A program made the translations under genes and the position numbers. Under the pieces are notes generated by a model, which did not search any database, was not told where the DNA came from, and saw nothing but the letters and a program-made list of their open reading frames with translations. Of a stretch of 64,000 nucleotides of DNA, positions 23,650 through 61,896 are shown piece by piece (the first letter of the stretch is position 1; every line of letters starts with the position of its first letter). Source of the stretch: Dipteris shenzhenensis (Eukaryota); the NCBI GenBank assembly GCA_047967505.1, contig CM106538.1, one strand, 5' to 3'.

Positions 23650-24100
23650 TTGAGGGTCTTTGATCTTGGCTTTGAAGTCTCTAATCAAAGCCTTGCCATC
23701 TCGAAAGACAACCCATTTTCCTTTTTTTTGGCGGCCTTTACCTTTGCAAGCTCTGAGGTCTTAGTCTTAAGCTGAGCTTTTGTGAGTTCCTCTACCATCC
23801 ACACGCTTAATCCTTTCAGCTTTTTCGATTGTCTAACAATCTGAGTTCTTTCATCTTTTGACTCGAAGGAAAGGATTGCATGCGCTCCTACTTTTCCAAT
23901 ATTAAACTCTAGGTCTTCCCATTCAACTCTTGGTAAAGCTTTGCTGATTTTCTCACGAGTCTCTTCACAACAAATGCCTATCTTTCTTTGTACCTCTATA
24001 CTCAACTTCTCTCTTGACTCCACTAGTGTAAGCACTCCAAGATTGTGGTAGCACACTCATTGTCATTGTTGTACCTCTCTTGTGCTTTCTGACAGCAAAG
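23650..24100 (-). mobile_element. LINE ORF1-like coding remnant, related to the ORF1 at ~3900-4400
   Basis: KKLKGLSVWMVEELTKAQL...GKWVVFRDGK parallels LKGTKIYLDEDLT...GKWAVYRDGK. Confidence 0.7.
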
Positions 24101-24549
24101 GTAAGAGTGGAAGTGTTTAGCTCTTCGACGCTACTTCAAGTAGTCTATGGCTATTGACTTTATATACAAGCCTTTCGCAATTCATGTAGCTACTCTTCAT
24201 ACGCGTAGCAAACAATCCATAATCATCCTCCATTATTCTATCTTAGATTTCTATCATGAGTTAGGTGGAGACTCTAGATGACAGGACTCCCTCTAATGCT
24301 AATTGTGGCTAGTTTAAGGACAAACTGAGTTTCATGATCAATTGTGAGTTATTACAAAACATTATAGTCACACTTGACCTGGCCCATATGAAGAAGGATG
24401 ATAAGCATAAAAAACCAAGGTCAATATCATTACAAAGGCTTCCACATTCTCTTCAAACTAGAAAGTTTTACATCCTTGTGAGGCTTTGAATCTTGAGGGT
24501 TAGGAATGAGCATGTGCAATGGCCTTCTAATAACAAATCAACCAAATAA

Positions 24550-25430
24550 TTTGGTACCTACAAAGAGGATCCGTCCAAGGACAAGATGCATAGTGGTGAA
24601 GGTCAAGGCTACTAATGGGTTTGTTCAAATAGCCTATTACAACATAGATGGTATGCTAGCAAGTGCTATAAGCATGACATTGGGGCCCATAGACAAGGGG
24701 TGGAAATAGAGGTAGGCATGTAGAAAGATCAAGGCTAGTAGTGGGTTTGTTCAAATAGCCTATATTAGAACAAAGATGGTATGCTAGCAAGTACTATAAG
24801 CATGACATTGGCGCTGATAGAGACAAGAGGCACAAAGAGAAGTAGACATGCAGAAATTCTACCCTCATCCAAGTTTTGTTGCAACTCAAGAGGAGCCAAG
24901 CTAGACCATCATGCCATTCTTTGATGACAAGACCCTTCTTCTAGTTTCCTCATGCTAACATTTGATGAAGTTCCCTTCAGGTTTTATGTGGATAATTCAT
25001 TAAGAGTAGGTATAGAGATAAGGGCAAAGCTAGAGGATGTGATCACAGGGGATATGGTATAGAACCTCTACTTCCTTTTCACCAATGGGCACCATTTGGT
25101 GCATGCTTTGCTCTCGTGTTCAGCACCCTTGCATGAGGCTCAATGGTTTCATATAGACTTACACCCTAGCAACATCTTGTTAGGTTCAAATGGTGCATAT
25201 TGAGTGTGATCATTGATTAGGGAATGGTACAAGACCTTTTTGAGGATTGCAAGGCCTTTAGAAAATTGAATTGGCAATCCTTGGAGATAGAGGGCAGAGC
25301 AAACCTTCAAGCACAAATGAGACTATGCTAAAAAAATTGGCTTGCACCAAAGTTGTGTGTTTTTGTAATGCAAGGAGGTAGATACAACCTACAACCTATT
25401 GATGTATACAAATACTTGAAAGTAGTGTCC
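24550..25430 (+). pseudogene. Degenerate atypical protein kinase (copy 1)
   Basis: WYASK (beta3 Lys, duplicated by a ~126-bp tandem repeat at 24600-24830), TIMPFF hinge, LHEAQWFHIDLHPSNILL catalytic loop (~25130-25185), VIID*G (DWG), WLAPKL, IDVY. Many stops and frameshifts. Confidence 0.75.
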
Positions 25431-25673
25431 ACATGCTTGATCAATCTCTTGTAAAGTTCATTGCACAAAATATTGGTGACAAGATGATGGCAACTAACCC
25501 TATGGAGAGAAAATCCGCCAAGTCACAATAGAGAATTGTAGGATGTATGGCTGCAAAGGGAGCTAGCCACGTGGCCCAACAAAGAGGTAGATTTTTCACT
25601 AAACCTTTTGGACCAATGTCTCTATTTGTAATCACAATTCACAATGTAATGTAATCCATTTCTTATCCTGTCA

Positions 25674-26500
25674 TGATTGGAGAAAATGTGACGTATTGCA
25701 TCGTAACATGTGATGTATTGCATTGATGATAATGTGACGTATTGTACATCATCTTGCATTGATGATAATGGAGCAAAGAAAGGTGGCAAAGGCTATGGAG
25801 GATGATAGAGGAACATAGATATAGAGTGAGAGCAACATGTAGAAAACAAAAGTGATGTAATATTTATTCATCAAGAAAGGTCTCTTATATAGGATGCGTA
25901 CACAATGGAGCTACATCATTGATGAGATCATAAAGGTATCTCATGTCCTATGATTCTCTCAATCGTCCCTTGAGACTCTCAATCATGCTACACACTATGA
26001 ACATCCAATTTTGCATTATTGTTTATGGCACTGTGAGGACACACCCGTTGTAGGGATGGCTAGGGAAATTTGGTGATCAATATCTCAGCATATCCCCACT
26101 CATGGTTAGTTACTCAGGTTCCAGCATCCACACTATATGAATAAAAGTAGTTTGTCCCCTCCTAGTCCAAAATAAACAAATTGAAGGCCCACACTATGCT
26201 GCAGCCCTTGGTGAAGGGTCATTGTACCTAGTGACCTTAGAAAGCTAGTGTTAATCTACAATAATTTTGCTTCATGAGAGACCTCTTCCTCACCTTCTTC
26301 TCCTCCTCCTCAGAGCTTGAGTCCTTTTCTTTAGGAAGCAATGTTCTTCTATGTGATTTTTCTTGCCACAAAAGCCACAAGTCTTTTGGTCCTTTCTTTT
26401 TGCCCTACTTGTTGGAATTCCTTTTGAAGAACTTTTTCTTTGAGTAGTGTACCTCTTAATTGCTATGGGAGAAGCTAGGGTCCACTTTCTTTCTCTTGAA
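25674..26500 (-). mobile_element. Heavily deleted copia remnant (short LTR candidate 25674-25964 + gag zinc knuckle)
   Basis: TCGFCGKKNHIEEHC knuckle at ~26340-26385. Imperfect terminal inverted repeats tgattggagaa / ttctctcaatcg with an adjacent purine tract on -. Confidence 0.5.
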
Positions 26501-27007
26501 CTCTTCAAGTAAATATTCTTCCACTCCTTCTAGCTTTGGATATGGTAAATTAGCAGATGGTGTTGCAACGATGGGGACAATGGTGGCGCCGGTTAATTGT
26601 GGCTGCGTTGGCCTTTTGCCCCATGTCCTAGATTTGTCAACAAATTCTATAGGCACATCCAACACAAACTTTGCATACAACATCTTTGCAAAGTAAAGTG
26701 GCACGGCCCCGCTATGGGGTTTATCAGATTTGATCATGTAGTGAATGTAGTATGCATTCTTCCTCATAGCGGGGTGGTGAAAATTCTTGATGGGCCACCA
26801 TCCATGTGCAGCATCGGTGCAATCCCATACTACTGCAATATTGTCATTGGAGACCACTGCATTCATGCAGTTGTATTTCCAACCGTTCAGATCATGAAAG
26901 ATGCTTGCATTGTCAATTACATGTGCCTCATGTCTTTGTGTCGATAGGAGGGTAGCATCAGTAGCAGCCACGTCCGTTATGCACTTCATGCCTTGCTTTC
27001 CTCTCAT
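26456..27007 (-). CDS. Hypothetical protein, probable mobile-element accessory ORF
   Basis: 183-aa ORF of globular composition (WWPIKNF...PLYFAKMLYAKFVL). Its 3' end runs into copia gag sequence. No domain recognised. Confidence 0.4.
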   Translation of the reverse strand: MRGKQGMKCITDVAATDATLLSTQRHEAHVIDNASIFHDLNGWKYNCMNAVVSNDNIAVVWDCTDAAHGWWPIKNFHHPAMRKNAYYIHYMIKSDKPHSGAVPLYFAKMLYAKFVLDVPIEFVDKSRTWGKRPTQPQLTGATIVPIVATPSANLPYPKLEGVEEYLLEEFKRKKVDPSFSHSN

Positions 27008-27368
27008 GTTTGAATCCTAAGATGTGTATGTAGCTTGTGTTGATCGTTGCAACGCGGATGCCATGGTGAGTGAGGGAGCAAGGGAAGATCTAACAAGCAT
27101 GTGAAATCGAGTGAGCGACTTGTTATTGAAACATTCAATTATAACATGCTCATGCCAATTCGTCCAACTAACAGGACTGCGGATTGACCACAATTGATTG
27201 AATTGTACAAATAAAAAGGGAAAACTCTGACAAGTTGTTACATTTTTAAACCCACATTTACATTTTTCAAAGACATTACAACTTTGGCAATCATAGTGCA
27301 ATCATATGGGTCAATCTCAAAAAAGATATAGCTTATATTCAACAACATGTCTTCATTTCCTCAATGGG

Positions 27369-29100
27369 TCACATTGCCACAACCTTGTTTACATTGAAAC
27401 TATGCATTTTTGTTAAAATTGCTCCCATAGAAGGTCGCTCCTTTGGATCAATCTTGCATAGCAAGTTCCCACAATTAACCAAGAGCTTGATTGCAAGGTT
27501 ACCCTTCACGGAGTTGTTAGTGAGAGCATCTGCAGTATCTATGAGAAAGGTGGCAATTTGCCAAAATAGCCATCCAACGACAAAGCAATCTGTCCCCGGT
27601 ACCCATGCACCCTTGGGATTTGCTCGTGTAGTTGTACAATTATATAATTCTTGTGCTAACCATGGAAATGCCCTAGGAGGAGCAAAAGCCGAGTCTTGCC
27701 GATATCGATTTTTGGTCCAGTGGAGGCTTCTTCCCCAATCAATAATCCCAACTCGGACGGACATGTCATTTGTCGTGAAGTCCAACATGTAGTTGGTAGC
27801 TTGCAGATCGATGTGCACATATTTTTGTTCGTGAACTGCTTTCAAACCATTGGCATTAGCAGCAGCAATGGACACTCCATGATGACAAAATACCCTTGCT
27901 CGCAACCTTGTGAATGGAGAGTTCCTGTCAAAGTGAGCTTCTTCTCTGGGATATGCGGTCTTAACCCATCTCACATATGTCCTGCATCACTGTCGGAGAC
28001 ACATCAACATATCGTGCATACTTCCACCATTAAAAAATGGAGTGACAATGAAGAGCTCTTGGGTGTGTGAGTATGCCAACACTCGATAGACAACTCTATG
28101 GACAACTATCGTCGCTAGCTCATTCTTTGGTGCCAGATGAGCATGGGAATTGTCTCTATTACTCCTCTTGCCAGCATACCATGACTTTGGCCTAAGACCT
28201 GGGACACACACAACCTGTATCTTGGATACCTTTCCTTCTCCTCCCTTGCCCACTGGTTTGTGCAAGGTCAACACTTGCAATGGAAAGTGTACTATGGGGG
28301 AGCACATGTCGGCAAATGCAATACATAGTTCTATTTGTGCTCTCCCTTCAGCTTGGCCTGGGTTAGCATTTGCTTCTAGACCACTAGCCATCTTGGTCTT
28401 ATGGACTAGGGCGCTAGATGTTGCCTTTCTGATGGATCCTTTCTCCTTCTGGTTTTTTCTACGATTAGATATCTGTGATGCCTTGCATTCAGTCATCCAG
28501 AGTGCAAGCTTGAGCTCTCCATTGAAAAGCAAGGCTACATTCTCACCTTCTCTTATAATTCCCATTTTCCTTCTAGATCTACAAACACTCGAGGGATAAA
28601 TTGATCAAGTTTCACTTTAACATTCGACCATGTCATTCGACCATGACCAGGCCAACTCATGTAAATAAGGTCAAGTATTCTGGATATCATTTGATCACGT
28701 AGAGATTTTGAGCTTGCATAGGCTCGAATTTCTTCGTCACTCAATCCTATCACGTCCTCGATTATTGTCTTATGGGAAAGCATCTGAATCTGAGTCTTCA
28801 ACTGCTCTTGCATTGCCATCAAAGATGGGTGTGTAGTGATCTAATGCATGCAACAAGTTCAATAGAAGGATATTTTTAATTTCTAAAATTTACAGAATTT
28901 AACTTACATAAAGGATTATTTCAAACATAAATTACACTATCCCAGTGACTTACCTATCGTATTCATCATTGGGAGGTGAAGACAAGCAAGAACCTTCGAT
29001 GATGCCCACAACCACCAGACACGATCGAGCTCTTGCCAATCAGGATGAGCCACTTGATGATGAAACAAACTAACTACCAATCTTCCTGACTATGACGTGT
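27369..29100 (-). pseudogene. Atypical protein kinase gene (copy 2), near-intact, with N-terminal helical region and one intron
   Basis: GKGGEGKV Gly loop, WYAGK, VTPFFNGGSM, HIDLQATNYML, IIDWG, PWLAQEL, TDCFVVG, DPKERPSM. One in-frame TGA at 27987 and a frameshift near 28560. Intron 28953-28841 (AG|GTAAGT...TAG). 5' end approximate. Confidence 0.85.
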
Positions 29101-30494
29101 AGGCAAAAATCTACCATCAAATAAATCTTGAGCAGCAAAAATTCTACAAAGAAAAGAGCTAACCCACAATTAAGCATATAAAAACATAGGGCCCAAAACA
29201 CTACTACCATGAACACAAACAATACGAAGGAAATGACCCAAGATCATGGTCTAGGGACTCATGGAGTATAACAAACTAGACATAAAGCCCTAACAAACAT
29301 CCCCTAATGATCCATGATTTCTAATTGACAACATGGAGAAGCACACTACTAGATAAAAATCAAGAAAGAATGCCAAGGAATAATGGCTGACTAGTAGTGA
29401 CACTCGAGAGGAAGACTCCCGCTACCAGACCCAGACTAGTCTACTCTGAGAGAACTACGATGGTAGGGATAGCTTCATGATGCAGATGAATGGGCTTTTA
29501 GATGGTTATTTCCTAGCACCCAATTATTCATAGCCTCTTGAGATCAATGGTCTTACTCTTACCATGACCAAGGAAATAAGCCACACTCGATCAAAAGCTT
29601 CTGATTAGAGGCAAGAAGCAAGTAGAGCACAAACTATGTAGCTCACCAAGCAATTCATCTTGGTTGGAACGAACTCAGTGGAGGAAGAGATTTAACCCAA
29701 GTGCTAAGCACTAACTGGCATGTAACACAATGCCATGAGAAAATCTTGAGCAAGACACCAGAACCAGCAACAGGGAGATGAACAATTTTGATTAAAAGGC
29801 ATCAGAATTGCATCATAATGTATTGATGTAGTTAGATGTATATGCCGATGAACATGTCTAACAAGTATGCTTTGATGACAATAAATGGAGCCATAGAATG
29901 CACCGATGTTTGCTGAAGTCACAGTGATTGGCCATTCTATGAATATGTGGCATCACCCTGAGACACTCTGACATGAAGTTGGGGGTAATAAACTTCAGGC
30001 ACCTCTTCACTTCCTACTGCTTTTGACCTGAGTGATAGAGATATTCATCACTAGGAAAGGGACATTAAAAAGAAGCTTTTATACCAAGAGACCACACCAT
30101 ACTATCCTCCCTTATATGAGAATGAAGATGGTAACATCCCAAGTGATGTTGTACTCAAGCATAGGGAGAAGGAAAGGATCAGTGGAGGCCATAATCTCAG
30201 TAAGTTGGTCTGCGCCAAAGAGAAGAGCAATACGTTGTTGAAAGAAGATCTTGTGTCTCAACATGACATGAATTGATATATATCAAGGAGTCTGAAGGGG
30301 CTAATTGGGTCAGATGGGTAGGTTCTGGGGAAACATTGCACCTCCTTCATAGATACCTTTACAATTAGCTCAAAACACTCTACAAACTATCATTAGACAC
30401 AAAGGCATATAACTTTTAGTAGTAGAGACATGATATCAAATATTCAAACACATATCGAGATGTGCCTTGAAATGGGCTTCGCTCTGATATAAGT

Positions 30495-31645
30495 CTCATA
30501 AGAAATAGAGAAGCGGTCAGAAAGATATGGGTAGTTTACTGGGCAGGGGTAAAAATGATCTCCATGATTAGACTTCATCAATGGTCCAAGTCCCATAGAG
30601 GTCACCTAGGAGGGAAGGAAGAGCTCCATTTGTGACTTGGGAAATAGATAAACCATGTATGCGCAATGAGCGGCCAAATAAACAACACTTTTGAGCACTT
30701 TGGAAGAGAAAACAATGGAAAAAGGGAAGAGACACTCAAGAGAGAGAACCTGAAGTGACCTTCATTACCACCAATAGAGTGAGAATCCACTCCAATGCAA
30801 CTCAAAATACTATAAACACAAGGGAGAAGAAGAGGTTTCCTATGTACAAGAGGGAGCGAAAGCTCCAAGACTACTCATAAAGAGAGAATGAACTAGAGAG
30901 AGATGGACTCAAGAGTCTACATAAGAGAATATCTACAAGAGGGAGAGAAGGCTCATGGAAGAGGCTTGAGGAGACTAGGGCTACAGCAACATGAGGCCTA
31001 ATGGCGGTGAACAACGGAGAGGAGGGCTCCTTTTATAGAGATTTTGTCACCCTCCTTCACCCATTTACAATTGTTGCCTATAGATTCCTTTCCCCATCAA
31101 TCACATAAGCCCATATGTCACCATCCATGTTCTTTTTGGCTACTCTTGCCATGTGTCCCATCAAAAGATGCTCAAGACTCTTAATATATTGAGAAAGTAA
31201 AGAGTCTCCCCACATGGAGCCCATAGGGACCCTCTCTTTTCCATATGTCCACATCCTCCTTATTCCACATAGGAATTCTAGAAGGATTCCTCTTGACTCC
31301 ACACTCCTCCACATGCCTTCCACATGCTTGGCATGTGGCCTCTCTTATATTATTGGAACACATGGACATGAGCCCACCTCTTTATATGACTCACTCTTCC
31401 TATTTTTTAAAAACTTCATAATATTCCATACACAAATAATTCTCACCCCATACCAAGGTATTTATCATTCATACATATGGTATTTACAATGATCCATTCC
31501 ACTCATCCTCTCAATCCCATACAATATCTTAGAAAATAGAAATAAGTGAGAGCTGCTAGGCTATCACTTGATACTCAAACTCTTACTAAACATAGAAGAA
31601 AACAATACCATTGCCAAATAAAAAATATCAATTTTTGGCGTCACA
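30495..31645 (-). mobile_element. LTR of the Ty3/gypsy element
   Basis: Starts TGTGACGCC at 31645 directly after PPT GGGGGGGAAAGA (31657-31646). TATA-like CTATAAAAGG at ~31030-31039 on -. Degenerate tRNA-iMet PBS (gctctgatataa on +) at 30481-30492. Left end approximate. Confidence 0.7.
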
Positions 31646-31696
31646 TCTTTCCCCCCCAGCGGATCCTCTCTAGTGATAGAGAGGGTCTGCTAGCCC

Positions 31697-34600
31697 TTAA
31701 GGTGGTTGAGCATAGAAGAATTTAAGGCGATACTCATTGGTGCATCCAAGTATCACCATGCCATCAACATCCTCAAGCTGATAGGTTCCATTTGTGAACT
31801 TTTTGACTTGATATGGTCCCTCCCATTGGCCGATAAACTTTTTGTCTAGCTGCTTGTCCAGACGGCTATTAAATCTCATGACCAAATCTCTTTCTGCAAT
31901 ATCTTTCTTCTTGCATAATTTGGTGTCAAAACGGGCCTTGCGCCTTTTTTGAGAAGCTTCCAAGTTTTGTAAGGCCTGTAATTTGCATTCATCCACGGCT
32001 TCTAGCTGTACCAAGCATTGAGCATACGCATTCTCATGTCCTTCTTTTCTTGCAATAGTAGTGTGAAGACTATGTATCTCCAATTCAATGGGCAAAATGG
32101 CTTCTATTCCATACACTAGTTGGAATGGTGTAAACCCAATAGCTAGCTTGTGTGTGCCTCTATAAGCCCATAAATCTTCTGCCAAGTGCCTATCCCAATG
32201 TCTTTTCTTGGTGTCTACAAGCTTTCCCATTGAATTGCACAACAATTCATTTGTTTTCTTTGCCAAGCCATTACATTGGGGATAGTATGGCGTGGACATG
32301 CTATGAAGCTTATGCACCCCATCTTCAATTAGTTCATTTCGAAAAGAGGTTCCTCCATCAATGAGAATTTCCAAAGGACAGCCAAAGCATGAACAAATTT
32401 GATCAAAGAGAAATTTTGCAACTGTGCTTGCCTTGCTTCTGACTGTGGCCTTGGCCTTTGCCCACCAAGTTGCATAATCTGTGGCCACCAATAAATAATG
32501 CTTGCCCTGAGATGAGTGAGAGAGTGATCCCACAAAGTCCAACCCCCACCTCTCAAATGGTCCATATGTTGGAATAGGCTTCAAGGGCCAGGAATCAATT
32601 GTTGCCTTCCAAACTTTTAGCATACTTTACAACTTTGACACCATTCATATATATCCTTATGGAGGCATGGCCAAAAGTAACCTGCATTAAGAATTCTCCT
32701 AGCTGTGCTCGCTGAAGTATAATGACCGGAGCATTCATGACACATTTCTAGGATTCTCCTAGTCTCCATGGGATGGACCACCTGACGGAGCACCTTATCT
32801 TTTCCCAATTTATAAAGAATGTCATCAACAAGGGACAAGCCTTCCTTATTAATCTCTGCTTCTGTTGTGGAGTTAACCCTCGAGGAAACATGCCTTCTTC
32901 CACATATTATTGAACATCTTGCAGTTCTGGCCATCCAGTGTCTACCAAAGAAACCACCCCCCAGTCTTGTACTATAATGGCTTGAATCATCTGCCCTTTG
33001 ATTTTATTTTATGTTTATATGAACAAACTTGCAAAAATCAAACTGACTACATAGTGCCATAGCCTTTTGATTAAGCTCCTTCAAATGAGGACTTCTTGTC
33101 TTGTAATGGCCTTGCATTTGCTTTATAATAAGCTGAGAATCTCCTCTTACGTCCAATTCTTTAACTTGACTTTGAAGACAACCCTCCAAACCAAGAATCA
33201 AGGCATTATACTCAGCTGCATTATTAGTTGTGATACTTGGAAGCTCTTATCCTCTTGCCCACACCTCTTGACCTTCAGAATTCATCAAGATTATCCCCCC
33301 AGCTCCTTGTTGGCGTGAAGGACTAAAAGCCCTATCAAAATACAAGACAAAAGCTATTGGTGGTGTCTCCCTTTCATCATTAATGTCCTCCTTATAATTC
33401 TTTGTTTCTCTTAGATCCTGCCATCCTATGAGAAAATCTGCCATAGTGGACCTAGTGGTATTTTCAGTGACAAAAGAGAAAGAGTACTCTTGAAGCTCTG
33501 ACAACCATTTTGCAAATCTCCTCCCAAGATTAGGCTTGCAAACTAGATATGCTAATATAGACAAAGAGGTAAGGAAAAAAAATGGCCGAGATAATAAGTA
33601 GGAGCAAAACTTTCTGACTGAAAACACCAAAGAGAGGGCTTCCTGCTCCATTTCTTCATACCTTGTTTCCACCTCTGTAAACTGTCTACCTACCTACCTC
33701 TCCTTTTTGTAGCAATATAGCACCAACTGAATGCAAAGATACACTTGGATTTACATAAAAGTCTTGAGACTAATCAGGGGGCTTCAATATTAGGCCCTTA
33801 CTCATGGCCTCCTTAAGTTGTTGAAAAGACTCTTGTTGCTTCACACCCCATTGAAAAGAAACTCCTTTTCTTGTCAACAAGTTCATGGGATGCACTATCT
33901 TTGAGAAATCATCACAAAAGCGTTGATAATACTTGCTTTTTCCTACAATTCTGCGAACACCAGTGACACTCTCAGGACTTGTTGGCAATGCCATGATTGC
34001 TTGAACCTTGTCAGGATCCATTTGTAGGCCTTCTTTAGACACAATATGCCCTAGCAAGACTACTTTTATTTGAGCCAAATGACCTTGCTAGGATTTAGAC
34101 ACCCTTTTGCTTCATCAATCCTAGCTAAGGCCATCTTTAACTTCTTCATGTGATCTATGCGTTGAGAATAAATGCAAAAATCATCCAAAAACACCCTTAT
34201 GAACTTTCCCAAGTAAGGCTCAAGGACTTGACTCATGAACCTTTGAAATGTAGCTGGTGCATTAGTCAACCCGAAAGGTGTGACTCTATATGAAAAAACT
34301 CCCCAAGGTGTGATAAATGATGTCTTCTTTTGATCTTCCTCCCGAATGCAAATTTGAAAGTACCCTAAATACCCATCACATATAGAATACATCTCATGCC
34401 TTGCTACTTGGTCTAGTATTTCATCTTGGAATGGCAAAGGAAAGTGATCCCTCTTAGTGCATGCATTCAAAGGATGAAAGTCCACACAAACCTGCCACTT
34501 ATTTCCTTTCTTTGGTGTGACAGCTATAGGAGATATCCATTCTGAATCATCAATAGGAAAGATGAATCCCACCTCAAGTAGTTGTGTTACCTCTTTCTTT

Positions 34601-35140
34601 AGTGCCTCAGCTTGGATCATCCACAATCGCCTCAAGCATTGCACAATTGGCTTGCTTTCTGGCTTCAACTCAATCTTGTGCTTCACAAGAGAGACTGGTC
34701 GAACCTGTGAATAGCTTGTTGCAAAGAGATATGGAAAATCATCTAACATATCCAAGGACTTGAGCTTCTCACAACCTGCTGATAGAGAATCACCAAGAAG
34801 GTCTTCATTGTGTTGGCATTCTTTAGTGTGCTCCACATCCTCCACATGAAGTGTCTCTATAGGATCTTCTTGCACCACCACCTTGTTCCTTCCTGACTCG
34901 TCCCGATCAACACCAAGACAAAGACCAAAGGCCACTCCTTCCACCTCACCCTCTGAGCTAGAATCTTCGGAGCTATGCCCTGTCTCTTCTTCTTCATCGG
35001 TTAATAAGTCAGAGCTCGAACTCTCTTGGGTAGGTTCCGAGGAAACATTGCACCTCCTTCATAGATACAAGCTGGAGGCATGTGTATCAGTATGCTTTGA
35101 TGGTGAACGTTTTTTTGTGAGATGTATTTGTGTTTCATAG
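31697..35140 (-). mobile_element. Ty3/gypsy non-chromovirus (Athila/Tat-type) pol: RT - RNase H - additional archaeal-type RNase H - integrase; decayed, gag missing
   Basis: RT: WISPIAVTPKK, DHFPLPF, PFGLTNAPATFQR, VFLDDF. RH: EQEALSLVFSVRKF. aRH: VLYFD, TNNAAEY, RGDSQLIIKQMQG. INT: CHECSGH, YFWP, WGLDFVG, YYPQCNG, FTPFQLVYG, WEGPY. Confidence 0.95.
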
Positions 35141-35199
35141 TGGAGAGACAAACCTGGTGGGCTCAAACTTTTGGATGTGCTATTTTCATGTATGCAAAA

Positions 35200-35640
35200 G
35201 TGGCAAGCCAGGATATGAGCCATTTGTGGGGCAAGTCCTAGGATTGGGCCTTGATAAATGATCTGGATGCATCAATGTATGGGGAGTTCTAGTTGGATCA
35301 AAAGTGGCCAGAGGAAGTGTACAAGAAGTGCTCGCTATTCTTGGATTACCCTGAAGGGGAGCACCCACGAGAGGAGAAAGAAATGTACATGATGTACAAC
35401 AAACTATGGGGGCCCAAAGAACCACAAAAGCTTGCAATGATGGTATGTACAAACTCAAGTGTCCCCAAAATATTTATCTTCCAGGTTATTTTATGTACTT
35501 ACAAAGGAATCTATGCTATTGGAAAGTGAAGAAATCAAGGTCAAGGCACTTGCATCTACCAGAGTGGGCAACAAAGTGGCGATTGAAAGAACGAGGGGCC
35601 AGAAAATAGATCAAGAGGCCAGATAAACCCGATAGACTTG
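35200..35640 (+). pseudogene. Frameshifted hypothetical accessory ORF
   Basis: ORFs 35293-35529 and 35406-35609 join into one protein-like reading (DQKWPEEVYKKC...IYLPGYFMYLQRNLCYWK). Confidence 0.3.
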
Positions 35641-36030
35641 GACAATCCTGCACCTAAAGGTACAAGACAATATTGTGACAAAAATCGAGATGTTGTTTTT
35701 TATTTTTAAAAGGGCCTCAAATAATTGGCAAAGTATTAGCTTCAGCAAAAATAGAGCCACTAGTTACACAACTTGGAAGCACTCGAACAGGAGCTGCAGG
35801 GGTAGAAGCTCAATGTGGAGATCAAGGTGAGGAGGATCTTCATGTGAAAGAATTCCTAGACACAACTAGGCAGTAACGAATTACTGACACAAAGTAGTCA
35901 AGTGGGACTGCTGCCAATTAGCCCTCAATCCACTAGTGTAGGTGGGTGTATACAACTGCATCCACACGTCCAACCCAAACAGGCAAGTAGCATGCTCCTT
36001 TGTTTTTTAATTATTGTCCTAAACAACATT

Positions 36031-36875
36031 CTAAAACATAATTTTCATTAGCTTCTGTAGCCATAGTTGACGTGGCCACAATTGCAAACATACAAGCATC
36101 AGGTGGACACAAAGAGAACGAGGAGGACCTACCAAGAGAGTATGAACAATCCACGTGTAAGTAGGGTCAGAAGCAACAGATCCATGGAAATCAATAATTC
36201 GTTGTTGAGGCACTTGTAATAATGAGTTTCTTGAACACGGCTAGGGCAAGGAGGTCCAAGAGAGGCATCTTGATGTTGCATGTGAGATGTCTATGTGCAT
36301 GGAGACATCCACCAAGTACATTCCACCAAAACGACAGGTTGTTCTATGCAATCCATTCCAGGTAGGAAGTTCGCTATGGAACGAGTGGAATTATGAGAAC
36401 TTCAACTAGTTATTAGAGCCTTTGGAGGAGGTGAACCATAGATAGCTTATGCAAAATCATGGTGGTTCACCTCCCTGATGCATCACTGATACTTCGACTA
36501 GGGGATGCCATTAAGTGGTGGAACAGATTTGGAGCGAATGCTTGCAATGCATTCGATCTTGCAAATCCAGTGCTTGCAGACAATGGTGTCCTTATATTCA
36601 CAAGGATAATGAAAGGATTGGAGGCCCTTCTCATAAAGATTGGGGAGGATATGCATCTGCATGAAGCAACAAGATGCCAACAGTGGATATTTTTTTTGTT
36701 CGCAGGTGGTGCACTCAAAAACCACAATATGTGTGTAGGGAAAGAGAGAAGTATGTGTTGTAATCATGAAAGGGTTTTTCAAGACATGATCACATGGTGA
36801 ATTGGGGTCTCCAAAGGGCCCCCAATTGGTGTTTTCTAATTTCAAGGGATTAGTGAGGTATTTAAGGTGTACCAA
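36031..36875 (-). pseudogene. Cys/His-rich hypothetical ORF remnant
   Basis: ECTTCEQ, CKHWICKIECI, downstream YVCNCGHVNY; interrupted by stops. Confidence 0.3.
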
Positions 36876-37229
36876 TGGGAGTGCTCCTTTTTGTGTGGCA
36901 ATGCCATGTTGAGGTGGAGGGTGGGTAGACCTGCAAATAGCCCCTATTAGCTACTCCTCTTACATCGGGGACCACTCAAACCATACCCCCCCCCTCAACC
37001 AATGCTTGACCCTTCTCCCATATGCACCTCCCAAGAGGCAGTGGGCCCTTTTGGGTGAAATTTTCCCCCCTCTCAGCTTGTTACACGCCTACGCCCTCCT
37101 CTTCTCTGGTCCAGCTCCATTCTCCCTCCATTTTTCAAATGTGGGAACTCATTTGGCATCTTCTCTGCCCCCTCTTGCTCTGGTCCATTGTGTTTCTCCC
37201 TCTCCAGCACCTCCTATAGCAGTTTCTCA

Positions 37230-37441
37230 TTCTCTCTCCATTCCTAGCTATAGCACCTCCTACAGCAGCAGCTGGTCATCCCCCTCTGCTCTTTCTTCCT
37301 CCATTCCTAGCTACAGTACCTCCTGTAGTGGCTGCTCATCCCCCTTTGCTCTTTCTCCCTCCATTCCTAGCTACAACACCTCCTAGAGCAGCTGCTCATT
37401 CCCCTCTACTCTTTCTCCCTCCATTCCTAGCTACAGCACCT
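37230..37441. repeat. ~60-63 bp tandem repeat, ~4 units
   Basis: Repeated ctccattcctagctacagcacctc core. Confidence 0.9.
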
Positions 37442-37571
37442 CTTGGAGCTTCTCTCAACCTTCAGTTGCACCCTCTATACCTTCTCCCTCTCTCTCCCTC
37501 TATTGGAGTTGCTCTCTCTCTCCAAGCTGCACTTTCTAGTCCATTATTGGTGTTGTGACCTTTGTACAAGC

Positions 37572-38836
37572 ATGGTGAGGAGACCATACATGTACTCTAT
37601 GTCCCATAGGAGCAAAAATGCACTAGGTGAATGGGTGCTTTGCACCTACAACTTGAATGATTGGATAGTCATGAGAGGATCTACCAAGGGTCCACATAAG
37701 CTTCCCAAGAGCAAAAGAGGTGATCTTTTGCATGAATGGAAGGGCCGCATCATGAAGTTCAAGCTTGGGAAGAAAGGATTGCTTGCAAAGGTGCAACACA
37801 TCTACATGGGGAAAGACATGCACCTTCCTCCGTCAAGCAATCAATTGACAATACCATCGCATTGTAAGTCTGCATTTTGTGTAAGATTTTGAGGTGTAAT
37901 GAGTCAACTTGAAATTGTATTTTGAAATAGAACCAGTGTAATGAGTCAGTGTGAAATTGTATTTTGAAATAGCACTTGTGCATGGCAGATGTATTTCCTT
38001 TAGACTTTGAGGAGTGGGAACTAGTCGAGTGCTTCTTAGGTAAGTTTACTGCCATTCATGAGGATTTAGGAAGGCAAATGCATGTTGGAGAGAAGTCCTC
38101 TGCTTTGAAAGAGAGAAATATCTATTGGTATAATGCCAAGTACATTACTCCAAGGATGGCATCAGGCTATGGCCATCTTCAATGCATTGCAACACCACAA
38201 CTTGAAGACATGGATTGCAGCATGGTGGACACAAGAACAATGCAATCATACAAGGAAGAGATTGCAAAGGATGTGGGCATGGCCATGAAGTTTACATTTG
38301 GCTCTAAATGGGTAAGGTCATCTTGGTTTATGCCTCTTCACATTTTTGTTCTTGTTTTCATAATATCTAGATGCACAGAACAAAAACCACGTGGTCATGC
38401 AAGTGCCTACATGAGAATGCCCTTGAGTAATTGGTTGGGGTGAATAGGGGAAGTAGGTCAGGTGAACAAAAGGGTGATCTATTTCAATGCCATGTATGTA
38501 AGGACAATGTGGTTGTCATGTACCACATCTCCTGCCAAATGTTATATTTTGCTTTCCAATATAGGTGCTGGAAGAAAACAGGTGGCAATTGGCTCCCTCT
38601 TGACTCTAACGATGATGGTAAGTTTATGTATTGGTTCTCATTTAGGAGATGTCAAGAATGTGACTGTCATGTCACAGTGGACTCTCAGGGACATGCAGGA
38701 ACACCTATTGGTCATGGAGGATGGCATGTCTGAGTCCTTTCACTTTACTTTAAATGGTGAAAAGGTAGGAAAGCATGCAGAGAAGCTTGTGCATAGTGCC
38801 ACTTTTATCCCTCCTGCAATATTGAAGATTGTCTAG
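37572..38836 (+). pseudogene. BAH-domain-like gene with possible C-terminal ubiquitin-like region; spliced, decayed
   Basis: ATG 37572; phase-compatible intron 37864-37988. Spliced product TYNLNDWIVMR...WKGRIMKF...KVQHIY...YVFPLDFEEWELVECFLGKFTAIH...IYWYNAKY follows the BAH beta-strand pattern. Frameshift at ~38400-38440. Confidence 0.6.
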
Positions 38837-39059
38837 AAAATGTGAAGTGGAACAATTGTGGATTTTGACATTTTTTAATTAATAGTGGTGCAATTAATTT
38901 TGATGTTTTGTTTCATATCAATGTCAAGTTTTTCCCAAAAAATTTATAATTCTTTTTATTTTTTATATTTAGAAAATTTGGGTATATATAGGTTATAAAG
39001 TTACTTTAGTTTCAAAGTTTTACAATCATAGCCATAGTTCTCCTAGCTACCAAACTACC

Positions 39060-40535
39060 ATGGATTTTGCTAGGTCTGCCTTCCACGATTTCATCTCCCA
39101 TACTCCATTAATTGATAGAGAGGAGGAGTTATTTCTAGTCTTTGATAAGAGCATAGATGTCCTAGGAACCTACTTGGGAGCCCAAGATGATTTTGAAGAA
39201 CTCATCAAGTACATGCAAGACTACATCGCGAGTTTTGCATATCAACTTGATGAGTCTACAAAAAGATGGGTGCCAATTGATTATTTGAAGTACTTGTTCA
39301 ATCAAGAACCCAGGTTCGTGAAGCATTTAGATTGCTTTCGAGCCCAGCTCACACCCCTAGGGTTTAGGGAGGTGGACACTGATGACTCCTAGCATGTGGA
39401 GTCGTCGAAAACATAGGAAATAGGTTCCTATCCTAGGAAATGACCTTTATTTTCCTTCTCCAAGAGGGACAAATGGAAGAGGAGGCCTTGACCTCAAGCC
39501 CTGACCTTGCGCCTGCCCTTTTCGATCCTCTTATTTCTATAGATGAGCCCAACATCTACAATGAAGAGCCCATAGATGAAGAAGTTGAGGAGCGGGAAGC
39601 TGCAGTGGCCCTGGAAGTGCTCCAATGACATCCTGAACCCCATTCTACTTCTCAAATTCCATCCACCTCGAGCACCACCTCTGTTGACCCTGCAATAATG
39701 ATATGGTTTCTTGCTCCCCTTCTTGTCGATGGAGAACAATACCTCTTTCTCCATGACATAGAGGTTATGTTTGGTCTCCAAGAGGATGAAGCTCTTGGTA
39801 TCCTATGTGGATACGAGGTGGACACGATTATGCAAGAACCTGGGTTTTTGGGAGCAGATGATTTAATAGAAGAGGTTCTTGCTTTAACACTGGCCCAAAT
39901 CAAAGATTCAGAGACATCAATCTACTTCAACCTACCTGATGTTCCAGAAGAAGTCTCCACATCTCACTCTAAACAGCAAGAGGCCTCTAGATCCATGCTC
40001 ATTAACAAAGAGGAAGGGATTGAGCATGATGACTCCATAGTGGTAAGAAACTATGAGCTTTGAATTTCTTCTCTCTTGGTATACTTTTGCTTTAATGGAA
40101 TTCTAATGTAATGTTGGACTGTTGCAGGAGGCATTTGAGGTTGACCTATTCTCATCTCGGTAATGCCTTGTTCGCAGTAGCTTCAGACTTGGCCAAGCAA
40201 AAGGGTGCTTTGTGGTTATCCACAAAAAGTTTTCTCCACATGGCACTAATGACCTCCTGAAGTGCAACGCCTTGTCAAGAGTGATTGGTCATGCTGACAT
40301 CAATCGCAATGCTGACAAGGTCATTTTGGTGAACTGCATGGCTGCCCTCAATGCCTTTGGAACCAATTATCAAGGTATGGCATTGATGGCAGCAGCCATG
40401 TCCCTGGCCAACAACGACAATAGCGTTGACTCTCTATCGACTAGGTTTAGAGCTAGGAGTGTATTTGGGAATTCAAAGCCTAATGTTCTCAGTGTTTTAG
40501 AGAAGAGAGAAAGGCTCGAAAGCCTTATTGTATAG
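39060..40535 (+). pseudogene. Very acidic hypothetical protein gene; spliced, decayed
   Basis: D/E-rich ORFs 39060-39392, 39440-40042 (internal stop at 39626) and exon 40128-40535 (internal stop). Phase-0 intron 40043-40127 (GTAAG...TTGCAG). Confidence 0.55.
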
Positions 40536-41019
40536 AATATGAATGCACCTATACTTTTATATAGTGCCCCATTTTGTGTTCTTTTATAAAATTTATTTTA
40601 TACTGTCATTGTATTTTGTAACTTTAATTGTTGTTGGCATTAATATTTTCATTCACTATTCTATTCAAAAGCATGCGATCAGATATTTGCACTATAATGG
40701 TCATTTCTTAGCAATCCAGTAAGAATGTCACCGTGCGACAGAAGGCAAATGTGTTCGAGATTGCACAGGGAGCGCAAAAATGGTAAAACCCGCTATGGCA
40801 CATATGGGGCCTGCTTGACCAAGCAGCACGGTGAAAAAACATCATTTGACCACTCAAATTCACACTGAACTTGGATAAACTGATGGAAAGCATCACATAA
40901 CATGTATAATAACATGGGAACAATAATAGAACATAAAGATATCTTTTATTCATTAGCCTCAAAGGGCAAAGATTTACAAAATGATTCAGGTTACGCCAAA
41001 TGAACCTAAACAACATATA

Positions 41020-42048
41020 GGGCCTAAGGGAGGGATTAGAGCGGATGCGCTTGGCGAGTGCAAGGTCCTTGTCCATCACTGTTACTCTTTTGGCATGGAT
41101 AACACATAAGTTCACGTCTTTAAAAAGACCTACTGTCATCTGCTCCGTTGCCTCCTAAATTGCTCCCATAGCACTTGAAGCGAAATGCACATCACTCTTG
41201 TAATGCTGTGCTATTTCACGTGCAACATCGGAAGGGTGCACGGGGAATGATATTGTCCATAGTGGTTTGGAACTTGCGAATCTCCTGAAGTGCCTTCACG
41301 CCTGATTTTTTGCACCTCTTAATCTTTGGGGGACCATGCACTGGCCTTGCCTCCATGGTCGCTTGTTCGCTTTGAACTTCTTTCACCTCTCCTCGCTTGT
41401 AACCATCTCTTCAAACTCCTCTTCCTGTGTCTGGTGGGTCATTCGAGGTGGCTTCTCGTGCCTAGAGGTCTGCTTTGTCCTTGGTCTCTTTTCCTTTTCA
41501 CGAGGCTGTGAGACAGCAAGCTGAGGCTCTTGCTTAGCTTGTACTAGAGGCTCTTCATATCTGATCATCTCGAGGCACAGAGGGTTGATGGTGCTCTTCC
41601 GTGTAGTCTGCTTGGTTGGAGGATTGGGGCCAAGGTTCATTATATCTGCGAGCTCGCCAAATACTTCATCTTGTTGTGGCCCTTGTAATCTCTCCATCTC
41701 CTCTCTTTGCCTTTCTTGCTTCCCTTGTTCATCTAGATGCTCCACGCTAGGACCCCACGGAGGAGGGAGGGGTAGTTGATCAGGATTGACTAGACCATTT
41801 TGCCCCTCTTAGGAGACCTCTCTACTTCCACGGTTAGTTGTGTGAAAGGATTGAGAGGACCCCTGATCGTGCTTGGATCCTTCATTGTGCTGGGATTCCT
41901 CATGGTGCTGAGATACCTCGGATCCCCCATGAGAGTCGGATGGTGGGGACTCGTGTTGCTTGGACTCCTGATGATGAGAACCGCCTTCAGATCCATGGTG
42001 ATCATTGCCCTCTTGGCCACTAGGGCTTGCCATGTGTTCGGAGGCCAT
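41020..42048 (-). pseudogene. Histone H3-like gene with long N-terminal extension; intronless, decayed
   Basis: Histone fold [78 protein letters not shown] (41303-41040), 49/88 identities to canonical H3 by manual alignment. Start ATG 42048 (acaccATGG). Stops at 41809 and ~41156; frameshifts at ~41390 and ~41228. Confidence 0.9.
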
Positions 42049-42137
42049 GGTGTTCTGAGGAGGACAATGGGTAGCGTCTAAACGGGGTCCAGTGGGTCTA
42101 GCAGTTTGTTTAACTCATGCCATAGAAATGAGGGACT

Positions 42138-42207
42138 TTAGGGTTTTTAAGTGCTTTATATAGTCTTTTTTAAAGCACTTTAGGGTTTTTCTTTTAAATT
42201 AGGGTTT
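42138..42207 (-). promoter_or_regulatory. Three telo-boxes (AAACCCTAA) around a TATA box upstream of the H3-like gene
   Basis: ttagggttt at 42138, 42180 and 42199; CTATATAAAG on - at 42163-42154. Confidence 0.5.
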
Positions 42208-42479
42208 TTTGAGTGCACCTCCTCCCCCCAGTGTTTTGTCGCCAATTCGGTAATACTTAATCTTCACCACCCTCCCTCCCAACCCACTCACCCCTCTGCC
42301 CTGCCATGTCGCACATGCAATTCTACAATTTCCAAACAAATTTGTGAATTTTGGAATCTATAATTGACTCAAAATAGTGTTAACTTTATTCATCAAACAT
42401 TTTATATTTGGGGCTCTCTTAGGACCCAATGCCTCCCCTGTCTGACTCTACATTGCAACCAAAGCACAACCCCTTGGCT

Positions 42480-42800
42480 CGGGTTACAAGAAATGAGCAT
42501 ATGCCATCATAGATCTTAGCCTAAGTGATAGTTATATCACAATCACATCCCGAATGCAAAGAATGTATCTAAAGCTTGGGATATATTAGATAGAGTCTTT
42601 GGTGCAATAGCTAACCTTCAAGATTACCTTGAAGATTCAGTTCTTTGAACTCAAGATGAATCCCACTCACAATTTTCTAGAGTACTTCAAATGAAGAACC
42701 TTATGGCTCAACTAGGAGGATAGGTGCACCCGTTTTCATGAGGAAGATTTTATAGCAATAATTTTAAAAACAATTTCAACTAAATAATATTGTCATCTTG
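42480..42800 (+). mobile_element. Copia gag fragment
   Basis: AYAIIDLSLSD...KAWDILDRVF...LKIQFFELKM, with frameshifts. Confidence 0.6.
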
Positions 42801-43509
42801 TGCCTACTTTATAAGGACCACAATGCATCCAAATGGCCTTTAAAGCAACCACTGCAACTCAATGCAAACCACAAACAAGCAGACATGGCCCAAATTGCAA
42901 CCAAAGTGATGTGCATAAGATATGCCCAAAATCATAGTCTCATAGCTTTATAAAAGTTAATGCTATAAAAATCCCCTTTTTAAATATAAGCTTATAGACT
43001 TACCCAATTAAAAGCAACCCTTCCAAAAGTATATTTTATAAAATTTAGTAAGTGTTTACTATTGAAAAAGCCCTCTTGCACTTAAGCCCGTGTGTTACAT
43101 TTACATATTTAAAAGTGTTTCCCTTGATCACATAGGACAAACACATCTATATCCATATTCAAAAAAAGCATGAAACAACACATAAACCATGGTGTCAGAT
43201 GGAGATACTGTTGCGGACACCTCTAAGTGTGTGGCCCTGATTGGAGGAGGGGCAGAGGAGGGTGTAGGGCACTAAAGCGGGACCAACACGGTGGGCAAGC
43301 TTGAGGAAGTACTGCACCTCATTCCTTGCCACCATCTTAGCCTCAGCCATTTCTACCTTCCTCCCAAAGTCCTGAAAAGTAATCAGCACCTTCTCATTGC
43401 CAGTCCGCTAACAATTGTTAGTCACACCTCATGTGGGTTAACAATTTTGTTTTTTGAGTTCATGATCATTGTCATGTGGGTCAACCTTGATGTGGTCATG
43501 GCTTTGTCT

Positions 43510-43960
43510 TCATTGTTTAGGCTATTGGTTTCTAGATTGTTTTCCTCAAAACTATGCCTGGATGTGTCACACCAATTCTTATCCCCCCTAGCTTATGTGT
43601 TCACTAGCTTCTTTGTCAAGTAGCTGTGCATTTGCTGGTTGTTTCTTCTCGTCTTCATTTTTATTCATGTTTTTTCTCTACTTGTATAGGGTAGTCATGA
43701 GTCTAGTTTCTACCTTTCAAGCTTCTATGTTTTGCCATAATAAAACATAGAAGCTTGAAACATAGTGACTACACTCATGACTACATAAGCAAAGAAAAAA
43801 GCATGAATCACAATGAGCACAAGAAAAGACAAGCAGCAAATGCATAGCTACTTAACAAAAAATCTAGTGACACTTGTAAGCTAGAGTCGATAAGAGGGAA
43901 GTAACACAACCACGAACTTGTACTTGAAAAACCAAGTAGAAACCAATAGACTCAATGACA
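43510..43960. repeat. Long imperfect inverted repeat (fold-back) with perfect 19-bp core stem
   Basis: tttcaagcttctatgtttt (43715-43733), 8-nt loop, aaaacatagaagcttgaaa (43742-43760). Arms stay alignable for ~220 bp (e.g. gtagctgtgcatttgctg vs cagcaaatgcatagctac). Confidence 0.9.
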
Positions 43961-58989: not shown

Positions 58990-59852
58990 ACTTGAAAACA
59001 TTAGAAGACACACCTAAGCATGCTTGTAGAAGTTGTAACACATTAACTTTTTGTTCAAAGTTTTAAAAAAAACCCAACTATGTCTACGTTCTTGTTAGAG
59101 AATAAGTTATTGGTGGCCCACTTTCCTCAAAGGAAAAACACATATGTTCAATTTGTTTCAAAAGTATTAAAAACAACATCTTGCCTACTTTTTGCAAAAC
59201 AAATATGCCTCTTTCAATGAAAACAATGCACACAAGCTCCTTAAAGGAAATTGAAGCAAGACTTGTTTCAATTAGAATCCCTTTTGCCCAGATACGTGAG
59301 CTCACTTTTGACGGGCAATATGGCTTGAAGGGAGTGTAGTGAACGTATTCGCTGACACAGAGAGAGCTCAAAAAGTTCTCCTTAGGTTTTTAATAGATGG
59401 AGCAACATCTATGGTTGCCATAAAAAGAAAGCTTGAGTATACTCATTATTATATGAGTGGCTTAGTTAGACCTACTCTTACTATGCATGCTCTAAATGAG
59501 CTTCTATCAAGTCCACTGTACAAACAATACAACATCAAATTGAATGACATTAAATGGACAACTCACATAGAACCACTGCAAAAAGAAAGCTCAATACAAA
59601 CTATATCAAATAGTACTATAGGAGCTGACAATGAGGACATTTCAACTAACACATTGGTACATGGAATTTACACAAGTCAACAAGTAGTGGATTTTGATAA
59701 CAAAAGCATATGTATAGCTCCTTCATAAGGTTTTTCACCATTGAGTCTTTTTAAAGACATACATTATGAAGAACTTGCATTTCCAAACTTATTCTATGGC
59801 CATTCGCAATCATACAATTTGCCTAAATGTACATCCTACCAAGAAATTGCAC
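58990..59852 (+). mobile_element. Helentron/Helitron2-type RepHel N-terminal region
   Basis: ACRSC...ICSICF; LKEIEARLVSIRIPFAQIREL..GQYGLKG.VVNV; AIKRKLEY; IAPS*GFSPLSLFKD..YEELAFPNLFYG. Confidence 0.8.
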
Positions 59853-61848: not shown

Positions 61849-61896
61849 GTAGATTGTGACAATTCACAATGCAATGGTGTCAATGCAGCAAACAAA

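Follow-up and report, generated by a model that had tools for sequence, protein, structure and literature searches.

A decayed block of BAH-fold, acidic and H3-like genes in plant DNA: a probable copy of a multi-copy cassette

INTRODUCTION

Do genes for several chromatin proteins travel together in the nuclear DNA of a plant, and if so, what carries them? The question is raised by a 64,000-nt stretch of Dipteris shenzhenensis DNA (assembly GCA_047967505.1, contig CM106538.1), referred to here as the window. An earlier reading of its letters (the original prediction) had seen at 24550-42210 one cargo module, made up of an H3-like histone gene, a BAH-like gene, a gene for a strongly acidic protein, two atypical kinases, two unknown open reading frames (ORFs) and a Cys-rich ORF, and had taken it for an anti-silencing toolkit of a large transposon or endogenous DNA virus. 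We find that only the right third of these 18 kb holds together, that is, the block at about 36.8-42.25 kb with the BAH-fold, acidic and H3-like genes. In our reading, to which we give a probability of roughly 55%, this block represents one copy, truncated and mutated, of a multi-copy plant three-gene cassette that is probably carried by, or amplified within, a mobile element, whose ends and mobility genes this copy lacks. As part of this explanation, the remainder of the 18 kb is on balance unrelated debris, composed of a gypsy fragment, the two kinases as pseudogenes and open frames that lack relatives. The observation behind the original prediction is partly confirmed, and its interpretation is partly supported.

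RESULTS AND DISCUSSION

A protein family with a BAH fold and no Pfam entry

The leftmost gene of the block, called BAH-UBL here for its predicted BAH and ubiquitin-like folds, is a broken copy on the plus strand at 37572-38836. Exon 1 (37572-37863) and exon 2 (37989-38836) are separated by a 125-nt intron (37864-37988), and the reading frame shifts near 38348 and again near 38615 and is interrupted by a TAA at 38428. The splice joint 37863>37989, with GT..AG ends, is seen in run X1, one of three sequencing runs described below; it links ...TIPSH to YVFPLDFEEW, and the protein family shows this junction as continuous sequence. The match by tblastn covers 37605-38830. The gene itself is real: based on a HMMER search with the exon-2 frame among 1.84 billion proteins, 83 representative clusters (50% identity) pass a threshold of E<=1e-3 and 19 one of E<=1e-10 (best 1.2e-20), and the full-length relatives are 370-420 aa long. 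The BAH assignment made in the original prediction gains nothing from Pfam, as none of 25 relatives matches the BAH family (PF01426) at E<=0.001 and none of three relatives or four window pieces does so at E<=5. Indeed, the 25 scanned relatives match no Pfam family at all, save for a chimeric model that has a zinc ribbon at its N-terminus.

The fold of the family was examined on an AlphaFold2 model of one relative, P0039 (52-sequence alignment; pLDDT 87.1, pTM 0.80). Comparison of this model with PDB by Foldseek, a check that had been proposed with the original prediction, gave 88 matches at E<=0.001, starting from 2.2e-5, and the matches listed are all BAH-containing chains, namely those of EBS, BAHCC1, AIPP3, ASH1L, SHL, ORC1, TNRC18, Sir3, DNMT1, MET1 and ZMET2. 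An aligner independent of Foldseek likewise pairs residues 7-189 with the BAH domain of ORC1b (Z 13.8; rmsd 2.7 A, 130 aligned), with EBS (12.3) and with TNRC18 (11.9), and residues 336-418 with the ubiquitin-like folds of UBX, SUMO and TBCE (Z about 9-10.6); residues 190-335 form a middle domain between the two, of unassigned fold. The sequence profile of the family, including its N-terminal part, has the BAH domain of BAHCC1 as its top PDB match (E 0.042), in an alignment of BAHCC1 VKVKWFYHPEE with family vkVqhvYmrrd in which the Trp of the WFY strand becomes His and the Tyr is kept, a comparison that bears on a possible aromatic cage for methyl-lysine. Because both the P0039 model and the profile match BAH, the earlier BAH call stands at the level of the fold. 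The BAH fold of the family is real as predicted for relative P0039, not for the broken copy in the window. At 83 clusters (50% identity), the family is sizeable, with a clear fold and no Pfam entry.

The family resembles the plant BAH readers EBS/SHL and AIPP3 (PDB 5z8n, 5znp, 7cce) in its BAH fold (Z 12.3 for EBS and 11.6 for AIPP3; Foldseek E about 2e-5) and in its plant origin. It differs from them in that it has neither a PHD finger nor a Pfam BAH match, aligns a His with the Trp of the WFY strand, adds the middle domain and the C-terminal ubiquitin-like domain, and is probably multi-copy.

Two other features that might have been read in this gene were rejected: a PHD finger at 38371-38730, whose Cys pattern is not conserved in the family and has no Pfam match, and an intron at 38312-38370, where the family motif WFxPxHVF is encoded. 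An Atlas comparison with P0039 gave a weak lead only, of 0.84 to DUF569/Ubiq_DUF_assoc. One family member, P0052 (594 aa), is fused to an N-terminal Zn_ribbon_LapB segment (E 2.6e-5); this fusion may represent an insertion into a host gene or a model mis-joined with a host gene.

An acidic protein encoded beside the BAH-UBL gene

Downstream on the plus strand, at 39060-40586, lies a broken copy of the gene for the acidic protein, with exon 1 at 39060-40042, an 85-nt intron at 40043-40127 and exon 2 from 40128. It carries stops at 39390, 39626 and 40161 and one frame change between 39389 and 39437. Its splice joint, 40041>40127, is again of the GT..AG type and seen in run X1, so that the short introns of the original prediction, of 125 and 85 nt in the two genes, are confirmed. 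The strong acidity was also correctly read: the two central ORF pieces have a pI of 4.05, with 18 Asp and Glu residues to 1 Lys or Arg in one piece and 27 to 4 in the other. The protein would be ~460 aa long with a conserved motif, YLFLHDIE...EDEALG. It has two relatives only, P0002 at 42% identity (E 2.8e-25) and P0077, the second half of which shares the acidic-protein motif (E 2e-6).

P0077 connects the two genes. A distant member of the BAH-UBL family, at ~29% identity, it is the single one of the 83 that holds the BAH-like and the acidic parts in one frame; this fusion gives the same order and strand of the BAH-like and acidic parts in another genome. Judged by these sequence comparisons, the linkage of the BAH-like and acidic parts is old.

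Searches with the acidic protein gave little else. Its N-terminal piece has no sequence relatives in PDB, its C-terminal ORF (40164-40532) finds two PDB rows only (E 0.24 and 1.6), and an Atlas comparison with the acidic part of P0077 gave nothing usable. Scans of JGI metagenomes with the whole of P0077 and with a family alignment (A5) yielded no confirmed loci.

A dead H3 variant with three histone-tail motifs

The third gene, convergent with the acidic gene as had been stated, is an intronless H3-like pseudogene on the minus strand at about 41020-42120, and the block from 37572 to 42210 is indeed uninterrupted. The call of an H3-like gene is secure, with a Pfam Histone match at E 1.4e-9 and with H3.3 as the closest solved chain to its histone fold among the matches listed (E 1.5e-21, aligned without a loop insertion). 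CENP-A is absent from the best 60 of 173 PDB matches, which are H3.1, H3.2, H3.3 and related variants in a comparison that does not include plant CENH3. The gene is real but dead, with four in-frame stops and two compensating frame changes in about 366 codons; the frame changes are deduced from ALQEIRKFQ..IIPRAPFR, which sits in a 64-codon stretch of another frame.

The unusual part of this protein is its tail, and here the description of the gene as a histone mimic was apt. Read from 42120 downward, the N-terminus is MA*VKQTARPTG, of the ARTKQTARKS type, and the tail of ~245 residues contains three ARTKQTARKS-like motifs, of which the inner two are TKQTTRKST and TKQTSRHEK, before the H3 fold begins. 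Compared with 51 long H3-like proteins that we found, only the window protein has three tail motifs, and 3 of the 51 have two (237-472 aa; second motif far downstream). The most informative comparison is with P0103, an H3 variant of 280 aa that similarly has an ARTKQTARK start, then a long acidic insert and then the H3 fold, and whose basic stretch before the H3 fold is homologous to the window protein (E 1e-19); P0103 differs in that it has one tail motif rather than three. Within the tail-coding sequence, an 18-nt tandem repeat of 3.5 copies (41857-41919) encodes hexapeptides rich in His, Ser and Glu.

Upstream of the H3-like gene, a promoter region on the minus strand at 42138-42223 contains three AAACCCTAA boxes, a TATA-like string and one arm of an inverted repeat. 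These are all the AAACCCTAA boxes in the window, where 0.69 would be expected.

The block recurs at high identity and differs at its left edge

If the block is a copy of a repeated cassette, then related sequences would be expected elsewhere, and such sequences were found. A search of sequencing runs identified three other public runs, X1, X2 and X3 (shares 0.15, 0.10 and 0.05), whose contigs we compared over 24000-43999; they give no cover, and hence no evidence, on 24000-28668 and 35339-36672. Pieces 95-98% identical to 36824-40586, 41572-41914 and 40970-41114 are spread over all three runs. In X1, which we guess to be RNA, the pieces cover 36824-40586 including both GT..AG joints, and none falls on the H3-like gene. 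X2 is DNA-like, with 1.95 Mb in 17,770 short records, of which 210 lie on these 20 kb, on a gypsy fragment described below and on all three genes of the block. As many as six different X2 contigs lie at one block position (36949), and as many as five at one position in a repeat just left of the gypsy long terminal repeat (LTR; 30229, 30273). X3 covers parts of all three genes. The claim that genes travel together is supported for the compact block of BAH-like, acidic and H3-like genes. We see no tie between this block and the kinases, either of the unknown ORFs or the Cys-rich ORF, all of which look unrelated.

The differences between the window and the runs are themselves of note. At sites that differ by a transition, T/A in the window with C/G in the reads outnumbers the reverse, far more so for X2 (181 vs 54; tested against the AT share, p 1e-9) than for X1, where the excess is modest (111 vs 57; p 0.02). 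The shared block begins on its left with 36799-37571 (plus strand), upstream of the BAH-UBL gene; the X1 pieces start at 36799 or 36824 and run to the exon end at 37863, across a 60-nt tandem repeat of 3.7 copies (37226-37449). Two X1 records go on leftward of 36799 with 132 letters unlike the window, 30 of which, as printed, occur nowhere in it, and therefore the window copy has been cut or rearranged at this point. Together, the run pieces, the transition excess, the left edge and P0077 fit a repeat copy compared with the consensus of its family.

Several points weigh against the reading as a mobile-element cassette. No contig among those listed bridges the acidic and H3-like genes, so that the H3-like gene is counted as a member because it is adjacent and because the same runs cover it. 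The contig depth in the runs is no copy number, X1 is only guessed to be RNA, and X3 has no C-to-T excess (56 vs 73). There is no second copy of the block in the 64-kb window. In the region 22.9-43.6 kb, where Pfam was scanned with 164 of the 185 ORFs of at least 45 aa (the other 21 being alternative frames inside gypsy pol at 31.7-35.0 kb), no transposase, integrase, capsid or polymerase was found besides the gypsy pol. Similarly, no terminal repeats or target duplications of the block were identified, and an 18-nt inverted repeat that brackets it (36704-36721 with 42206-42223) falls outside the homology edge at 36799.

This inverted repeat has no flanking duplication, and its 15-nt core occurs three times in the window at <=2 mismatches (0.33 expected), that is, in the two arms and in one further match with two mismatches. 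It may represent either a promoter element in shared use or a terminal repeat. A palindrome with a perfect 8-nt stem, AATTGGGG...CCCCAATT, sits right on the left homology edge, at 36800-36827, and CTAA follows 8 nt later; a Helitron end at this hairpin was rejected by eye.

What the cassette might do

If the block is a copy of such a cassette, then an intact copy would encode a protein of ~400 aa with an N-terminal BAH fold, a middle domain and a C-terminal ubiquitin-like fold, an acidic protein of ~460 aa, and, from an intronless gene, an H3 variant with a long tail that bears the ARTKQTARKS motif three times; the spliced forms would come from intact copies elsewhere. The BAH-UBL protein could read a histone tail, the acidic protein could handle a basic partner, and the H3 variant could enter nucleosomes or, through its tail, titrate the readers and writers of H3K4/K9. 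The combination of a BAH reader, an acidic partner and a three-motif H3 suggests an action on nucleosomes or on H3-tail readers. We infer the high copy number, mobility, carrier and function of the cassette; the anti-silencing role of the original prediction would be pure conjecture. It is a tentative idea, with the odds against it, that the block comes from an undescribed plant mobile element equipped with chromatin proteins of its own, namely a reader of BAH-ubiquitin-like type, its acidic partner and an H3 variant that displays the H3K4/K9 motif three times, and that this equipment marks, shields or de-silences the chromatin of the element, or titrates the silencing readers of the host. If borne out, the presence of a BAH reader and a three-motif H3 in one repeated plant cassette would offer a direct handle on how repeats contend with histone-based silencing.

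Few transposons carry chromatin proteins of their own, and the nearest cases are VANC in Arabidopsis and a captured H3 in fungi. In Dothideomycete fungi, as described in PMC6710886, histone H3 was captured and amplified by a hAT transposon. The likeness to our case lies in an H3 copy that is multiplied with a repeat and then decays by C-to-T type changes, whereas here the host is a plant, the carrier is putative, the H3 tail has ~245 aa and three motifs, and two further genes lie alongside. VANC proteins are the anti-silencing proteins of Arabidopsis VANDAL transposons, transposon-borne proteins that work on the element's own chromatin and that come with tandem repeats in its non-coding parts, according to PMC5735166. 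In contrast to VANC, our block has no transposase beside it and a putative function, and no sequence or fold relation to VANC was seen, in searches that were not aimed at one. Word matching in the full-text literature, supplements excluded, gave no plant repeat that combines BAH, acidic and H3 genes, which is a weak negative.

A host gene cluster as the alternative

The alternative that survives best is that the block derives from an ordinary host cluster of lineage-specific chromatin proteins, of which the window holds a duplicated, silenced pseudogene copy, such that the copies reflect family expansion and not transposition. This would account for genes that have their own promoters, including plant telo-boxes, as well as spliceosomal introns and spliced forms in a relative; it also agrees with the size and diversity of the BAH-UBL family (83 clusters) and with the failure to find a mobility gene. 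However, a host cluster does not readily explain why several variant contigs lie at the same places in an assembly of 1.95 Mb, alongside a gypsy element, or why other copies carry at the edge at 36799 a different sequence that the window lacks. The window copy has an excess of C-to-T type differences like that of a repeat copy, and a fold-bearing plant protein family without a Pfam family is likewise a point against the host cluster. We consider the host cluster doubtful.

A gypsy fragment separates the block from the left-hand genes

A 5'-deleted Ty3/gypsy fragment of ~4.75 kb, missed by the earlier reading, occupies 30315-35068 on the minus strand, midway through the 18 kb. It consists of pol (31700-35058; RVT_1 2.8e-19, RT_RNaseH 2.6e-11, RVT_3 2.7e-14, Integrase_H2C2 3.5e-9, rve 1.9e-5), a purine tract (near 31650), one LTR directly after these (30315-31645) and a 42-nt copy of the LTR end (35027-35068) that abuts pol and matches 30315-30356 at 95%. 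ORF scans and self-comparison found no gag, no protease and no full second LTR, and the possibility that 35069-36798 is LTR sequence was rejected for want of homology to 30357-31645. Because this fragment separates the left-hand items from the core block, the 18 kb are not one contiguous module.

Another alternative is that the block belongs to a large LTR retrotransposon on the minus strand, as its region of extra genes; the sense H3-like gene would then be intronless and the two antisense genes would keep their introns. The observed pattern fits, with the H3-like gene on the minus strand and the two intron-bearing genes on the plus strand, but H3 genes are often intronless anyway. The adjoining pol is also on the minus strand, and it has a second RNase H (RVT_3), which we take to be a mark of the Tat group. 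Elements of the Tat/Retand type bear extra genes antisense to pol as well as tandem repeats, as reported in PMC11963269 and PMC7264820. However, the extra ORFs of the cited elements lie between pol and the 3' LTR, whereas our block is in the wrong position relative to pol, on its 5' side, with pol directly meeting the purine tract and LTR. In addition, the block has no TRP28 domain, none of the 164 scanned ORFs matches Transposase_28 (PF04195), the search for an LTR pair was negative, and the single X2 record that reaches the break near 35027 continues with 255 letters unlike the window. The main text of PMC11963269 uses none of the words histone, BAH and intron. A retrotransposon origin of the block is unlikely.

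The whole of 24.5-42.2 kb as one cargo module of a large transposon or endogenous DNA virus, kinases included, is barely credible: every piece is pseudogenised, and kinases and histone do occur together in some giant-virus insertions of plants (PMC4083422), but the gypsy fragment and 1.7 kb of unrelated DNA interrupt the region, the kinases hardly resemble each other, the genes are of plant type in their spliceosomal introns and promoter boxes, the Pfam scans contain no viral hallmark gene (capsid, polymerase, packaging), and IMG/VR viral contigs, in a search that finds close relatives only, hold no confirmed loci for five queries (kinase 2, P0039, the BAH-like ORF, the acidic ORF and P0103). 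The sole capsid-named Pfam row is a nodavirus capsid at E 0.0026, with 17.3 bits against a cutoff of 25. Neither a transposase nor a viral hallmark was thus found in the scans for the large transposon or DNA virus of the original prediction, and a comparison with viral relatives, which had been proposed with it, was likewise negative.

Kinase pseudogenes and open frames outside the core block

The two kinases of the original prediction differ in standing. Kinase 2 is a pseudogene on the minus strand at 27372-28604, with one exon of 411 codons and recognizable GKGGEG loop, HID and DWG motifs; read through its one in-frame stop, it matches PK_Tyr_Ser-Thr in Pfam at E 1.2e-9 (38.3 bits vs a cutoff of 23.1) and solved PDB kinases at E about 0.004. 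A word-based search limited to proteins of 226-720 aa found no relatives of kinase 2. Kinase 1 is a weak, heavily broken remnant on the plus strand at about 24930-25530, with HIDLHPSNILL and IID*G motifs read from the sequence, and a Pkinase match at E 0.019 on a 46-aa ORF (25063-25200) that carries HIDLHPSNILL. Kinases 1 and 2 resemble each other at a tblastn E of 0.61. The statement that all the genes are similarly decayed does not hold, given one stop in the 411 codons of kinase 2 and four stops and two frameshifts in about 366 codons of the H3-like gene.

The two unknown ORFs and the Cys-rich ORF do exist as open frames, to which no family or solved relative could be assigned. The first is a 186-aa frame at 26459-27016, within a minus-strand feature at 26293-27016, which has no Pfam or PDB sequence relatives and overlaps a 79-aa frame with the string CGFCGKKNHIEEHC, CCHC-like as judged by eye only. 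The second corresponds to frames at about 35189-35606 that have no Pfam match. For the Cys-rich ORF there are two candidates, 36501-36950 on the minus strand (10 Cys in 150 aa) and an open frame at 36435-36797 on the plus strand.

Surroundings of the block

The window is repeat-rich nuclear DNA of plant-like character, and its CpG content is depleted (observed/expected 0.35 across the window). Outside 22.9-43.6 kb, Pfam scans covered 117 of 198 open frames of at least 62 aa (86 of 86 on the right and 31 of 112 on the left). They identified LINE pieces at about 1.9-3.9 kb and at 63 kb, a CLASP exon at 9919-11880, and copia pieces at 14.4-16 kb and 47.4-48.6 kb. A remnant of a Helitron Rep/helicase lies on the minus strand at 59839-61879 (PIF1-like helicase E 3.6e-18, Helitron_like_N E 1.1e-4), 17 kb from the block, and we saw no connection between them. 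No Rfam families were found in 24-43.5 kb.

Right of the block is a single C-terminal exon of a lipoxygenase on the minus strand at 43198-43407 (Pfam positions 625-673 of 673, E 7.8e-5). With its 3' end, this isolated last exon spans 43119-43407; its cover in run X1 is high, with a loose end at the exon edge, and none of 43 frames of at least 25 aa in 43.4-47.2 kb is a further lipoxygenase exon. Next to it, 440 nt at 43516-43955 are self-complementary (76% identical to their own reverse complement) and may be an insert of the foldback or MITE type. The left edge of the 18-kb region has a 128-nt unit in two tandem copies that are 84% identical (24599-24856).

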